A DNA stretch of 64,000 bases. It comes from Escherichia phage UPWr_E4. Position numbers and translations under genes: made by a program. Shown here piece by piece: positions 12,768-64,000 of this stretch; the first letter of the stretch is position 1; every line of letters begins with the position of its first letter. The stretch lies in sequence record PP418987.1. The stretch is one strand, 5' to 3'. The notes under the pieces were generated by a model. That model was given only the letters and a program-made list of their open reading frames with translations, did no database searches and was not told the origin of the DNA.

Positions 12768-12788
12768 TTAAATTTGAGGAAGCTATTC

Positions 12789-13034
12789 GTGGAAATAACT
12801 AAAGACCAGTTTTATCTGCTTCAAGATAAAGTGAGCGAAATTTATGAAATAGCTTATAGTAAAAATCGTAGAAATGTAAAAATTGAATCTGGCAAGTTAA
12901 TGCTTCAATTAGAAGAAATTGAACGAGATTTAATTGCGTTAGAATTCTTTTGTGGTGAAGTGAAAACTGTTACAATCAGTGATTATGTTTTAGGCGAAAT
13001 TAGCCATCTTTATAAGGCGATTATTAATGATTGA
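12789..13034 (+). CDS. Hypothetical small protein
   Basis: GTG at 12789 preceded by GAGGAAG; ORF track uses TTG at 12774. Confidence 0.45.
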   Translation: MEITKDQFYLLQDKVSEIYEIAYSKNRRNVKIESGKLMLQLEEIERDLIALEFFCGEVKTVTISDYVLGEISHLYKAIIND

Positions 13035-23388: not shown

Positions 23389-23471
23389 GTTCATTATGTT
23401 GGTGTTTTGTTTGGTTAATTAGTATTCCAGTAATTTGTTTAACATTTACTTTTGTGATGAGGTTATTATGA
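23385..23471 (+). CDS. Tiny hydrophobic peptide (28 aa)
   Basis: ATGA-coupled to upstream stop; MSSLCWCFVWLISIPVICLTFTFVMRLL. Confidence 0.3.
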   Translation: MSSLCWCFVWLISIPVICLTFTFVMRLL

Positions 23472-23566
23472 AAATTTTGAATTCTGTACTTATTGCTTGT
23501 GCGTGGTGGGTTGCACAGGTTTCAGCGGTAGTAGTTGGTATTCACATTTATTACGAATATTTTTAA
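23468..23566 (+). CDS. Tiny hydrophobic peptide (32 aa)
   Basis: ATGA-coupled; MKILNSVLIACAWWVAQVSAVVVGIHIYYEYF. Confidence 0.3.
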   Translation: MKILNSVLIACAWWVAQVSAVVVGIHIYYEYF

Positions 23567-23574
23567 AAAAAGTT

Positions 23575-23604
23575 GTTTACAAGACTGTTCTTCCGTGGTA
23601 CTAT
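23575..23604 (+). promoter_or_regulatory. T4-type early promoter (cassette family)
   Basis: GTTTAC 23575-23580, TACTAT 23599-23604; shares GTTCTTCC(G/A)TGGTACTAT with the 44316 promoter. Confidence 0.55.
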
Positions 23605-23632
23605 TACCCTATCAACTACGGAGGAACAGAAA

Positions 23633-23746
23633 ATGAAAAAGATTGTTAAAGCTATATGGAATGTAGTTATAATACTAGTAGTTTTGAGTATATTCCCAAT
23701 CGTTTTAATGATTGATGTATTAAACGTTTACTTTGGATTTATGTGA
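23633..23746 (+). CDS. Small membrane peptide (37 aa)
   Basis: RBS GGAGGAA; single hydrophobic helix. Confidence 0.4.
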   Translation: MKKIVKAIWNVVIILVVLSIFPIVLMIDVLNVYFGFM

Positions 23747-23753
23747 GGAAAAT

Positions 23754-47373: not shown

Positions 47374-48389
47374 TAATTGAGGCCTGAGTATAAGGTGACT
47401 TATACTTGTAATCTATCTAAACGGGGAACCTCTCTAGTAGACAATCCCGTGCTAAATTGTAGGACTGCCCTTTAATAAATACTTCTATATTTAAAGAGGT
47501 ATTTATGAAAAGCGGAATTTATCAGATTAAAAATACTTTAAACAATAAAGTATATGTAGGAAGTGCTAAAGATTTTGAAAAGAGATGGAAGAGGCATTTT
47601 AAAGATTTAGAAAAAGGATGCCATTCTTCTATAAAGCTTCAGAGGTCTTTTAACAAACATGGTAATGTGTTTGAATGTTCTATTTTGGAAGAAATTCCAT
47701 ATGAGAAAGATTTGATTATTGAACGAGAAAATTTTTGGATTAAAGAGCTTAATTCTAAAATTAATGGATACAATATTGCTGATGCAACGTTTGGTGATAC
47801 ATGTTCTACGCATCCATTAAAAGAAGAAATTATTAAGAAACGTTCTGAAACTGTTAAAGTTAAGATGCTTAAACTTGGACCTGATGGTCGGAAAGCTCTT
47901 TACAGTAAACCCGGAAGTAAAAACGGGCGTTGGAATCCAGAAACCCATAAGTTTTGTAAGTGCGGTGTTCGCATACAAACTTCTGCTTATACTTGTAGTA
48001 AATGCAGAAATCGTTCAGGTGAAAATAATTCATTCTTTAATCATAAGCATTCAGACATAACTAAATCTAAAATATCAGAAAAGATGAAAGGTAAAAAGCC
48101 TAGTAATATTAAAAAGATTTCATGTGATGGGGTTATTTTTGATTGTGCAGCAGATGCAGCTAGACATTTTAAAATTTCGTCTGGATTAGTTACTTATCGT
48201 GTAAAATCTGATAAATGGAATTGGTTCTACATAAATGCCTAACGACTATCCCTTTGGGGAGTAGGGTCAAGTGACTCGAAACGATAGACAACTTGCTTTA
48301 ACAAGTTGGAGATATAGTCTGATCTGCATGGTGACATGCAGCTGGATATAATTCCGGGGTAAGATTAACGACCTTATCTGAACATAATG
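47374..48389 (+). mobile_element. td group I intron (1016 nt) carrying the I-TevI ORF
   Basis: Starts TAATTGAGGCCTGAGTATAAGGTG after exon 1 ...TTGGGT and ends ...AACATAATG before exon 2 CTTCCATTT; exon reading frame is restored exactly. Confidence 0.9.
47505..48242 (+). CDS. I-TevI: GIY-YIG intron homing endonuclease I-TevI
   Basis: 245 aa; GIY-YIG motif (GIYQI...VYVGSA) and C-terminal zinc-finger/DNA-binding region; inside the td intron. Confidence 0.9.
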   Translation: MKSGIYQIKNTLNNKVYVGSAKDFEKRWKRHFKDLEKGCHSSIKLQRSFNKHGNVFECSILEEIPYEKDLIIERENFWIKELNSKINGYNIADATFGDTCSTHPLKEEIIKKRSETVKVKMLKLGPDGRKALYSKPGSKNGRWNPETHKFCKCGVRIQTSAYTCSKCRNRSGENNSFFNHKHSDITKSKISEKMKGKKPSNIKKISCDGVIFDCAADAARHFKISSGLVTYRVKSDKWNWFYINA

Positions 48390-60023: not shown

Positions 60024-60359
60024 ATGTCTGAAGTACAACAGCTACCAATTCGTGCTGTCGGTGAATATGTTATTTTAGTTTCTGAACCTGCACAAGCCGG
60101 TGATGAAGAAGTTACAGAATCAGGACTTATTATCGGTAAACGTGTTCAAGGTGAAGTTCCTGAACTGTGTGTAGTTCACTCTGTCGGTCCTGATGTTCCT
60201 GAAGGTTTCTGCGAAGTTGGCGATTTGACTTCTCTTCCAGTTGGTCAAATTCGAAATGTTCCGCATCCTTTTGTAGCTCTGGGTCTTAAGCAGCCAAAAG
60301 AAATTAAACAAAAATTCGTTACCTGTCACTATAAAGCTATTCCGTGTCTTTATAAGTGA
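60024..60359 (+). CDS. 31: Co-chaperonin gp31 (GroES analogue for capsid folding)
   Basis: 111 aa; [30 protein letters not shown] matches T4 gp31. Confidence 0.9.
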
Positions 60360-60367
60360 TATAAATA
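60360..60367 (+). promoter_or_regulatory. T4 late promoter TATAAATA upstream of rIII
   Basis: Exact TATAAATA immediately after the gene 31 stop. Confidence 0.55.
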
Positions 60368-60506
60368 ATAATATGAATTGGGTGTCGGAATAATAAGTTA
60401 ACCGAACAATTCTATGTGGTAGTCTACAACTGAGAGATCTGTCGAAAGAAGATGAAATTCAGAAGAACGTGACTACCGAGTTTTAATCTCTAACGAGAAT
60501 TTTTAA

Positions 60507-60755
60507 ATGATTAAACAATTACAACACGCTCTTGAACTGCAACGAAACGCATGGAATAATGGTCACGAAAACTATGGCGCATCTATTGATGTTGAAGCCG
60601 AAGCTCTTGAAATCCTGCGTTATTTCAAACATCTGAATCCTGCTCAAACTGCATTAGCTGCTGAGCTTCAGGAAAAAGATGAACTTAAATATGCTAAGCC
60701 TCTGGCTTCTGCTGCACGAAAAGCAGTTCGTCACTTTGTGGTAACACTGAAGTAA
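60507..60755 (+). CDS. rIII: rIII lysis-inhibition accessory protein
   Basis: 82 aa, size and position after gene 31 as T4 rIII. Confidence 0.75.
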   Translation: MIKQLQHALELQRNAWNNGHENYGASIDVEAEALEILRYFKHLNPAQTALAAELQEKDELKYAKPLASAARKAVRHFVVTLK

Positions 60756-61153
60756 TTTATTGGAGAGTCACTGCCTTAGTGTGAAGTTAAAACGAGGAGC
60801 CGTCGAACTGTCTGATTAATGATTTGCGAATCATTATAGTTTTAAGACCCCGGCAGTTTTACGGTGTACCTCTTGAATGTTATTCTTATAGCGGCAAGTG
60901 CATGCTACCCCGAGGTGATGGCCAATCGGGAGTACGCCTCAAGGCCTATATATCCATCAGTATATATCTTATCCTCGAGAAATCGAACCCGGAACCTTTA
61001 AGCTAACGGTGTGCAACAGATAAGAGCTATAAGGTATGATGACGGGTTTATGGTTATCCTGGTCGTTAAATATCAAAAAACCTATGTTCCCCTTGAGGGC
61101 TTGCGCAGGCAATGCCAATAAGTCCTGCATTTTCATTTAAAAGAGAATTTATA
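60756..61153 (+). other. ORF-free, GC-enriched intergenic region with multiple stem-loops (candidate structured RNA or long 3' UTR)
   Basis: About 400 bp with no ATG-initiated ORF on either strand; hairpin TAATGATT-TGCG-AATCATTA near 60816-60835; long-range 8-bp pairing CCTCAAGG / CCTTGAGG; terminal hairpin GCAGG...CCTGC plus U-rich tail around 61104-61137. Confidence 0.3.
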
Positions 61154-61330
61154 ATGGCAAAACAAGCTAAAGCAAAGAAAGCAGTTGAAAAGAAAGTTGG
61201 TGATTCTAAACGCGCTGGCTACAAGCGTGGGTCGAACTCTCGTATCAATCAAACTGTTGAGAAGATCATGCGCCGAGCACGTGCGGTTCTTCGAGATGAT
61301 GCTTCTCGTTTTGGTAAGCAGAAAGCATAA
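61154..61330 (+). CDS. Small basic protein (T4 30.9 position)
   Basis: 58 aa from ATG 61154 (AAAGAGAA upstream; track start 61112); MAKQAKAKKAVEKKVGDSKRAGYKRG... Confidence 0.5.
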   Translation: MAKQAKAKKAVEKKVGDSKRAGYKRGSNSRINQTVEKIMRRARAVLRDDASRFGKQKA

Positions 61331-61335
61331 GTTGA

Positions 61336-61364
61336 GGACTCCTTCGGGAGTCCTTTTTTATTTT
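61336..61364 (+). terminator. Intrinsic terminator GGACTCC-TTCG-GGAGTCC plus T6 (same hairpin as at 6844)
   Basis: Identical 18-nt hairpin to the soc terminator, followed by U-run. Confidence 0.8.
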
Positions 61365-61383
61365 CCAAAGATTGCATAAAGTT

Positions 61384-61416
61384 GTTTACAGTATGGTTCC
61401 TTTGTGATAGTATTAT
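61384..61416 (+). promoter_or_regulatory. T4-type early promoter with -10 in the loop of an inverted repeat
   Basis: GTTTAC 61384-61389; TAGTATTAT -10 region; TTTGTG (61402-07) / CACAAA (61421-26). Confidence 0.55.
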
Positions 61417-61440
61417 CTTACACAAACAAAGGAGAATAAA

Positions 61441-61773
61441 ATGAAAACGATTAATCTGAACGCTGCAGTTAAAACTAAATGCTTCAATGGTAAATATGAT
61501 GAAACTATGTGGTTCTTAATGGCAGTTGAAGGTGATATTATTGAAGTAGAAACAACAGAAGGTATGGGAACAGATTTCACCTTTACAATTCAAGTTCATA
61601 ATTTCTTTACTGGTTGGATTTATGAATTGAATACAGTAATCGTTGGAAAAATTGAACAAAATGAATTAGGTGAATGGTATTATGTTACAGCTCGCCAACG
61701 TGCCGAACGCTTAATTGAGAAGATGAAAAAAGTTGGTAAACTTGACATGCAGCATTGGAAAGTAGTAAAATAA
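61441..61773 (+). CDS. Hypothetical protein (T4 30.8 position)
   Basis: 110-aa ORF, RBS AAAGGAGAA. Confidence 0.55.
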   Translation: MKTINLNAAVKTKCFNGKYDETMWFLMAVEGDIIEVETTEGMGTDFTFTIQVHNFFTGWIYELNTVIVGKIEQNELGEWYYVTARQRAERLIEKMKKVGKLDMQHWKVVK

Positions 61774-63394: not shown

Positions 63395-64000
63395 AGCCTA
63401 CTATTTTAACTGATATTGATGGAGTATGTTTAAGCTGGCAATCAGGCCTTCCTTATTTTGCTCAGAAATATAATCTTCCGTTAGAACATATTTTAAAAAT
63501 GATCCAGGATGAGAAATTTATTTCTCCTGGTAAACTATTTAATTGCGATGAAGAACTTGGCGTTAAGCTAATTGAAAAATACAATCGTTCGGATTTTATT
63601 CGATACTTGTCTCCATATAAAGATGCCCTGTGTGTAATTAACAAATTAAAAGAAGATTATAATTTTGTAGCTGTTACAGCATTGGGTGATTCTATTGACG
63701 CTCTGCTGAATCGTCAATTTAATTTGAATGCTCTTTTTCCTGGTGCCTTCTCAGAAGTACTGATGTGTGGTCATGATTCTTCAAAAGAAGAGTTGTTCAA
63801 AAAGGCAAAAGAAAAATATAACGTAATTTGTTATATTGACGATCTCGCTCACCACTGCGATCACGCAAGTGAAATATTAAATGTTCCTGTTTATTGGATG
63901 GCTCGAGGGGAACGTGACAGTATTCCAAAAACTGCACAGCGAGTTTATACATGGAATGATGTAGAGAATAAGCTTTTTCCATCGAAGGAAAATAAAGAAA
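63391..64000 (+). CDS. HAD-superfamily phosphatase / nucleotidase-like protein (3' end outside window)
   Basis: ATGA-coupled start 63391; HAD motif ILTDIDGV and later YIDD; no stop before window end. Confidence 0.55.
   Translation, partial: MKPTILTDIDGVCLSWQSGLPYFAQKYNLPLEHILKMIQDEKFISPGKLFNCDEELGVKLIEKYNRSDFIRYLSPYKDALCVINKLKEDYNFVAVTALGDSIDALLNRQFNLNALFPGAFSEVLMCGHDSSKEELFKKAKEKYNVICYIDDLAHHCDHASEILNVPVYWMARGERDSIPKTAQRVYTWNDVENKLFPSKENKE

Follow-up and report, generated by a model that had tools for sequence, protein, structure and literature searches.

What occupies the long and comparatively G+C-rich gap between rIII and 30.9 in Escherichia phage UPWr_E4, and does it act as RNA? We examined this question in a stretch of 64,000 nucleotides of the phage genome (PP418987.1; hereafter the window), in which the gap covers 398 bp (60756-61153), the rIII stop codon ending at 60755 and the 30.9 ATG lying at 61154. 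The genes of the plus strand follow the order cd, 31.2, 31.1, gene 31, rIII, gap, 30.9, terminator, early-promoter-like site and 30.8, and the 1.2 kb around the gap are 100% identical to Yersinia phage PYPS2T and to several Escherichia Tequatroviruses. The transcription unit that includes the gap ends after 30.9, and 30.8 has a promoter-like site of the early type directly after the terminator. Within the gap itself, a consensus scan found no sigma-70-like promoter, no late promoter TATAAATA was present, and the terminator scan called no intrinsic terminator in 60756-61153. Upstream of rIII, the 147-bp spacer that separates it from gene 31 (60360-60506) carries a late-promoter box TATAAATA at about 60360. 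The features of the region are collected in Table 1.

Table 1. Genes, RNA elements and helices of the rIII-30.9 region, in window coordinates.
Feature	Position	Strand	Evidence
Gene 31	60024-60359	+	
rIII coding sequence, 82 aa, upstream neighbour	60507-60755	+	ORF list; named rIII in identical phages
M0, small hairpin CACU-GCCUU-AGUG	60769-60781	+	Sequence, judged by eye
M1, long imperfect hairpin	60794-60872	+	Minimum-energy fold, alignment, gap sequences
Predicted structured RNA domain, four-way junction and kissing loop	60886-61032	+	RNAalifold, pair counts, P0' test, covariance model R1
P0'	60886-60892/61026-61032	+	
P1	60893-95/60944-46	+	
P2	60904-13/60926-37	+	
L2, GAUGG	60917-21	+	
P3	60947-53/60960-66	+	
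L3, CCAUC	60954-58	+	
P4, branching into P5 and P6	60967-73/61019-25	+	
P5, loop GAAA	60975-78/60983-86	+	
P6	60987-91/61007-12	+	
Invariant GCUAACGGUGUGCAACAGAU	61001-61020	+	
M3: UAUGAUG, hairpin, A-rich tail GUUAAAUAUCAAAAAACC	61035-61082	+	Alignment, 31 distinct copies
Hf, hairpin CCC-UUGA-GGG, then CUUGC	61089-61104	+	Local pair counts
Stem GCAGG/CCUGC, 14-nt loop	61105-61128	+	Alignment, variant folds
Predicted small hairpin UUUUC/GAGAA, 30.9 Shine-Dalgarno region in 3' arm	61130-61147	+	Leader folds, 25 variants
30.9, 58-aa basic protein, downstream neighbour	61154-61330	+	ORF list
Strong intrinsic terminator 3' of 30.9	61334-61355		Terminator scan

The initial annotation of this stretch, made from the letters alone, had described the gap as richer in G+C than its surroundings, and this was borne out: the gap has a G+C content of 0.42-0.45, rising to 0.48 in the conserved core, against 0.355 in the whole window and about 0.30 in the other long gaps. 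With the exception of the 3' part of the td intron, it is the sole G+C-rich long gap in the window. That group I intron (47505-48386) consists of an I-TevI ORF (47505-48242; MKSGIYQIKNTLNNKVYVGSAKDFEKRW...) and a G+C-rich 3' part (48243-48386); we take the ORF to be the I-TevI endonuclease and the sequence 3' of the intron to be exon 2 of thymidylate synthase, both recognised by eye from their protein sequences. Other parts of the initial description have to be corrected. The gap was said to be free of ATG-initiated ORFs on either strand, but it holds a 34-aa ATG ORF on the plus strand (61036-61140) and a 55-aa one on the minus strand (60969-61136), and some database records annotate short 'hypothetical proteins' within it. 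All other spacers were said to be under 100 bp, whereas on a crude ATG-ORF map more than ten other gaps reach 100 bp or more, including gaps of 259, 365 and 402 bp. In three AT-rich stretches of 259-402 bp (12768-13026, 23389-23753 and 63395-63796), neither strand has an ATG ORF that reaches 45 aa; these stretches may contain small genes or genes with non-ATG starts.

To define which part of the gap is conserved, we compared it by sensitive BLAST with 50,697 phage records. The middle 135 nt (approximately 60892-61026) are 91-96% identical in other phage genera, namely Jiaodavirus-like Klebsiella phages, Karamvirus, Moonvirus and Kanagawavirus, in which the rest of the gap is not alignable, while T4 and most Tequatroviruses match only the flanks of the gap. 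Between the window and three other genera the identity of this core is 93-96%, and among those three it is 97-99%; the corresponding values for the neighbouring genes between genera are 66-76% for gene 31, 71-74% for rIII, 60-71% for 30.8 and 67-87% for 30.9, with dS of the flanking genes ranging from 0.4 to more than 1.5. The domain evolves roughly 10-100 times more slowly than adjacent synonymous sites, and the core of a Klebsiella phage differs from that of Citrobacter phage Merlin at one position in 135 nt. Such near-identity between genera could stem in part from recent exchange of the segment as a cassette, and not from selection alone.

The distribution of the domain was then extended with the copy of Escherichia phage EcS1, the most divergent of the well-characterised ones, as BLAST query. 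At least 377 GenBank phage records were matched, from phages of Klebsiella, Escherichia, Enterobacter, Shigella, Yersinia and Citrobacter, and further from those of Salmonella, Erwinia, Raoultella, Edwardsiella, Kosakonia and Serratia. The phages vB_EcoM_G29 and JD18 are among the carriers. Two patterns, a 20-base motif without variation among the 18 copies collected first and a more tolerant composite pattern, matched only T4-like phage contigs in IMG/VR, mostly of 165-178 kb, and both were absent from 185,579 bacterial and archaeal species represented by one genome each. In the fetched loci the domain always lies between rIII and 30.9. The motif search does not depend on either gene, and it placed the domain 5' of 30.9, on the same strand, at every locus that had both flanks. 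A covariance model of the core (R1) scored one match in the window, at 174.7 bits, and none in T4 or in the rIII loci that had no BLAST match.

The fold of the 147-nt domain was derived from the comparison of these copies. RNAalifold, applied to 31 sequences, predicted 42 pairs, 13 of them with compensatory changes; the contact between loops L2 and L3 and the helix P0' were added by eye to the RNAalifold helices and then tested on the alignments. The arms of the resulting model are P0', P1-P2, P3 and P4 (with P5 and P6), and L2 and L3 are joined by a kissing contact of five pairs. P0' is a short terminal helix that joins both ends, adjoins P1 and P4 and so closes the domain. Since P0', P1, P3 and P4 abut without any linker base, the model is a perfect, self-closed four-way junction, and A/U-rich single strands flank this compact fold. 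The P5 loop is GAAA in most copies and GUAA, UAAA or UAAU elsewhere, which indicates that it is probably peripheral. Another closing helix, GCAAG/CUUGC, showed only uncompensated breaks, the true closing helix being P0', and a local hairpin GCC-UCAA-GGC conflicts with covarying P2 pairs. The centroid fold of the window sequence alone recovers the junction. The single-sequence fold of the domain is not unusually stable (z = -1.27), and the 398-nt gap folds no better than its shuffles (z = -1.0 on the plus strand and -0.4 on the minus strand). Single-sequence thermodynamics therefore gives no signal, and the evidence for structure comes wholly from the comparison among phages.

This comparison is based on copies from 39 loci found via rIII, from motif-found and 30.9-found loci and from selected GenBank records, which together gave 26 distinct cores that were aligned with MAFFT. 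In this alignment 99.3% of the 1065 pair cells are standard pairs, and both sides have changed in 18 of the 41 pairs, against 4.6±1.6 after shuffling (0/500) and 1-4 in slid controls. The L2-L3 kissing helix is paired in 100% of cases and covaries at two positions (GC to UA and GC to AU at one pair, GC to AU at the other), with variants that stay in register, such as UAUGG/CCAUA in Serratia-type copies and AAUGA/UCAUU in locus L124. P0' is 95.4% paired, compared with 70.5±3.5% for shuffled partners (0/2000), and three of its five positions show at least three standard pair types. Its variants include UAAAC/GUUUA in Klebsiella phages, UUAUAGC/GCUAUAA in the window, CAUAC/GUAUG in Serratia phage PS2 (L032) and UAAUC/GAUUG in L124. 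G-U pairs are frequent, with 24 U-G pairs at P3 and 7 at P5; they fit the plus strand only, which places the RNA on the same strand as the genes. P1, of 3 bp, is invariant, and of the five P6 pairs only one varies, changing from A-U to U-A in L124; because they never vary, P1 and the other four P6 pairs are predictions. Unpaired columns are less variable than paired ones (39% versus 52%). On this comparative basis we consider it about 90% probable that the domain is a genuine, selected, structured RNA of the plus strand.

A metagenome contig (L077, QZLZ01027750.1) carries the only change seen in P1, a C-to-U change that gives a U-G pair. In the same contig the leader after Hf is deleted and runs straight into the middle of 30.9; the contig is just 1,537 bp long, and the deletion may be an assembly artefact.

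The identity of the domain was also compared with known classes. The proposal of a non-coding structured RNA has strong support, owing to the conserved and covarying 147-nt junction and not to the features that had been cited for it. The other proposal, a decayed gene or a remnant of an intron or homing endonuclease, finds no support. Variable columns are spread evenly over the codon phases (23/24/22), without three-base periodicity, and the core lengths of 138, 140, 141, 142 and 150 nt break every reading frame; the ORFs of the gap have no convincing Pfam or PHROGs family match. No group I intron was matched by Rfam. Searches with Rfam 15 at E<=10 returned nothing overlapping the domain in the window (60300-61500) or in four other loci (L003, L031, L030 and L022), and a scan of the whole window at gathering thresholds gave 0 matches. 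The gathering scan also missed the td group I intron of the window, so that Rfam negatives are not absolute.

Likenesses to other RNAs were considered in the same way. ARAGORN finds no tRNA in the window, the loop contact of the domain joins the neighbouring arms P2 and P3 and not the first and third arms, and GGUAUG follows P0'. Between E. coli RNase P RNA (rnpB, L081) and the domain (60888-61028) there are shared segments, GUGCAACAGA, CGAUGGCC, CAAGGCC and GAACCCGG, which are not collinear and have p of about 0.04 by shuffling; they are probably due to chance. Against 16S, 23S and 5S rRNA, tested for complementarity and similarity, the strongest complementarity covers 11 nt (p = 0.08) and involves bases that are not constant among the phages. 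In the literature searched, we found no published description of the domain. The text of a 2023 viral and phage catalogue (PMC10690425) mentions neither T4-like phages nor rIII, and a conserved 18-mer of the domain occurs in no searchable paper, though the motif may have been listed somewhere before. On the basis of the comparison among phages, we regard the domain as a new, well-supported structured RNA family in a classic phage group.

The domain is not the sole structured element of the leader between rIII and 30.9, which is a mosaic of conserved RNA modules including M3, Hf, a covarying stem and a Shine-Dalgarno hairpin. The first hairpin, M0, is variable and, as judged by eye, recurs in other gaps at other positions, with variants such as CGC/GCG and GCUAC..GUGC. 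M1 is confined to gaps of the Tequatrovirus type, being present in T4 and absent from Merlin, the Klebsiella phage and PEi26. The UGCG-loop hairpin described in the initial annotation, TAATGATT-TGCG-AATCATTA, exists (60817-60836) but is a part of M1, and shares its restriction to Tequatrovirus-type gaps. M3 is found in nearly all rIII-30.9 gaps, including those of T4 (L002) and of loci L003, L020, L023 and L040, and is thus commoner than the four-way-junction domain. Its stem pairs 61041-43 with 61062-64 and 61045-46 with 61058-59, and its conserved loop contains GGUUAUC. The outer three pairs are formed in 31 of 31 copies, with pair types AT/TA/GC and CG/GC/TA; the variants of this covarying outer stem are GAC/GUC, GUG/CAC, GUC/GAC, GUU/AAC and GGC/GCC, and the tail also occurs as GUUAAAUAUCCAAAACC. 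The local pairs of Hf are 97.8% paired, with G-U variants and a compensatory GCC/GGC in L124.

The existence of Hf bears on the long-range pairing of 8 bp that had been proposed earlier. Both segments, CCTCAAGG at 60937-60944 and CCTTGAGG at 61091-61098, are present as described; the helix between them has no compensatory change, its paired fraction equals the shuffle expectation, its central pairs cannot form in 6-8 of the 30 sequences, and CCTTGAGG sits in the local hairpin Hf. The hairpin before 30.9, which had been described as a terminal hairpin, fared better as a structure than as a terminator. GCAGG (61105-61109), CCTGC (61124-61128) and the following ATTTTCATTT are all in place, and the stem covaries between lineages (GGGAGC/GCUCCC, GGGAAC/GUUCC, GAGAG/CUCUC and GGCGA/UCGCC); it is kept in every lineage, with a loop of about 5 to about 48 nt, the latter in Klebsiella phages. 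As a terminator it fails the terminator scan, has a 14-nt loop where 3-8 nt would be expected, and is followed in other genera by a U-poor tail, AUGUAUUUCUCC. Further downstream, the folds of all lineages put the 30.9 Shine-Dalgarno sequence into what we infer to be the 3' arm of a hairpin, the equivalents in other genera being UUUCUCC/GGAAGA or CCUC/GAGG.

The comparison of these leaders showed that the domain is not fixed within them. In T4 exactly the domain segment is missing and the remaining leader is kept. In six loci of other Tequatroviruses (L006, L008, L011, L012, L013 and L019) the place of the domain is taken, at exactly that point, by an unrelated hairpin insert of about 47 nt (..CUAUCACGCGUCAGAAAAAGGUUAUCUGUCUAAGUCGUGG..). 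In the UPWr_E4 window, Merlin, EcS1 and L124 the domain precedes M3, whereas the Klebsiella phage, L030 and PS2 have M3 on its 5' side; the Karamvirus-type copy L022 has Hf there. Lineages also differ in how far the domain stands from the 30.9 ATG and in which hairpins separate the two. The absence from T4 and its relatives, taken together with the lineage-dependent position relative to M3, indicates that the domain behaves as an optional and movable cassette. Within the 64 kb it is single-copy, and no repeats of the gap modules were found elsewhere in the window. In L023 the 47-nt insert is found within the stem that precedes 30.9. The inner hairpin of the insert covaries (CAGA/UCUG versus CAGC/GCUG), and its loop has GGUUA(U/G)C in common with M3.

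The gene that follows the leader is itself conserved to an unusual degree. The product of 30.9 is a very basic protein of 58 aa with invariant SKRAGYKR..SN and RARAV motifs, assigned to PHROG 1427, of unknown function. No Pfam match was obtained, and matches in the PDB were weak and insignificant. Among its 68 homologue clusters, all named ones come from T4-like phages. The AlphaFold model, of low confidence (pLDDT 66.8), consists of a disordered N-terminus and one helix at residues 29-53. The nucleotide identity of 30.9 reaches the upper end of its range, 87%, between genera, which is unusually high, and its dS of 0.4-0.9 is below that of rIII. The protein gp30.9 is a candidate RNA-binding partner.

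Which function, then, could such an RNA have? Our tentative preference is for an independent RNA module. The domain would be transcribed as part of the rIII-30.9 messenger, as neither a promoter nor a terminator belonging to it was detected, and might be released by cutting at its A/U-rich flanks. The module would bind a partner conserved across the enterobacterial hosts or across these phages, which might be a small molecule, a protein, or the machinery of transcription or translation. The near-invariance of the domain in phages of many hosts, unpaired bases included, suggests that this partner is itself highly conserved. Because the domain has no fixed position relative to other leader elements and the start codon, and T4 has an identical 30.9 and 3' leader without it, a direct switch of 30.9 is less likely than an independent module, and we think that the latter is likelier than a classical riboswitch or terminator wired to the start of 30.9. 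The constant site 5' of 30.9 fits cis-regulation of that gene equally well.

A cis-regulatory leader of 30.9, that is, a riboswitch aptamer or a protein operator, possibly for gp30.9, which would gate access to the Shine-Dalgarno sequence, is a possible explanation, although we give it somewhat less weight than the independent module. The location upstream of 30.9 at every flanked locus of the motif search agrees with it, as do the predicted hairpin around the Shine-Dalgarno sequence, the high conservation of 30.9, and the conserved unpaired bases, junction and loop contact that are typical of aptamers. The first of these points has to be read with care, since only 5 of the 39 rIII loci depart from rIII-30.9 synteny and the location before 30.9 is thus not independent evidence. 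A conserved, aptamer-like structure supported by covariation is indeed present in a 5' leader, but an expression platform is not apparent: between the domain and the ribosome-binding region we saw no mutually exclusive pairing, and no conserved alternative pairing either, GCAAG/CUUGC included. The spacer hairpins vary, and lineages differ in how domain, M3 and Hf are arranged. Moreover, T4 lacks the domain, yet its gp30.9 is 98-100% identical and its 3' leader is the same.

Of comparable, modest probability is the idea that the domain represents a new class of RNA of T4-like phages, acting as a self-cleaving ribozyme, a ligand aptamer, or a decoy or sponge for a conserved host factor or an immune signal molecule. 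If a decoy or sponge, it would be an accessory tool of counter-defence or takeover, which would jointly explain the near-invariance across genera, the autonomy of the fold and the patchy presence, including the absence from T4.

We consider it rather unlikely that the domain determines the stability or processing of the messenger, or that it is a self-cleaving ribozyme that splits the rIII and 30.9 cistrons. The compact closed fold with its A/U-rich single-stranded flanks and the site between two cistrons would suit such a role, and invariant unpaired nucleotides would suit a catalytic core, but a barrier to nucleases needs no sequence identity of 93-99%, and no known ribozyme family matches. 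Slightly less likely still is a modifier of RNA polymerase or Rho comparable to the put RNA of phage HK022, which would permit read-through of the terminator after 30.9 or shield the untranslated stretch from Rho. The case for it is the long untranslated stretch upstream of a strong terminator, the flexible position within the leader, and an extreme conservation over many hosts that would suit a partner as conserved as RNA polymerase. This case is circumstantial, however: Rfam scans showed no likeness to any catalogued antitermination RNA, 30.8 has a promoter-like site right after the terminator, and T4 manages without the domain. Finally, the absence of any RNA function (a decayed gene, an intron or homing-endonuclease remnant, a DNA-level site or a selfish cassette) is very improbable, since the variable presence among close relatives, the alternative inserts at the same site and the 'hypothetical proteins' of some records are outweighed by compensatory changes and strand-specific G-U pairs that indicate RNA, by the negative coding and intron tests described above, and by the single copy in the window.

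Natural material makes the function of the domain directly testable: T4 and its like are natural 'knock-outs', and the alternative inserts offer natural replacements. The carriers include phages of Klebsiella, Escherichia and Enterobacter, hosts that are of interest for phage therapy. The RNA has seemingly gone unnoticed in the well-studied T4-like phages, probably because the reference phage T4 lost the domain. In intricacy the predicted fold equals those of riboswitches and small ribozymes.

This comparison with riboswitches can be made in more specific terms. Purine and lysine riboswitches have L2-L3 kissing loops, and SAM-I and cobalamin riboswitches are built on four-way junctions. The domain resembles them in its closing helix, linkerless junction, loop-loop contact and 5' leader location, and in the stronger conservation of its unpaired bases relative to the stems; it differs from them in having no Rfam match (E<=10, five copies) and no overlapping expression platform, and in being movable and dispensable in T4. 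The put RNA of HK022 consists of two simple stem-loops of about 70 nt. Like put, the domain is a self-contained structured RNA that lies ahead of a terminator in a phage transcript, and it would have a highly conserved host machine as its partner, but it is a 147-nt junction with a kissing loop, and no similarity between the two was detected. T4-type phages reportedly carry PeSL cassettes (Arbiol and colleagues, 2010), many per genome, each composed of an early promoter and a stem-loop, whereas the domain occurs once in 64 kb, in a gap without a sigma-70-like promoter.

Within T4 itself, the stable RNAs species 1 and 2 (rnaC and rnaD; 139 and 119 nt) are likewise small structured phage RNAs within a longer transcript, and we know of no function established for them. 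They are annotated in the T4 record at a different locus, and rnaC ends in a tRNA-like T-arm, which the domain does not have; R1, run with filters off, gave no match in the tRNA/rnaC/rnaD region of T4. The closest parallel in the kind of evidence is provided by the orphan structured-RNA motifs (Weinberg et al. 2010, PMC2864571; 2017, PMC5737381; and the 2023 catalogue, PMC10690425), which were reportedly likewise recognised by intergenic conservation together with covariation.
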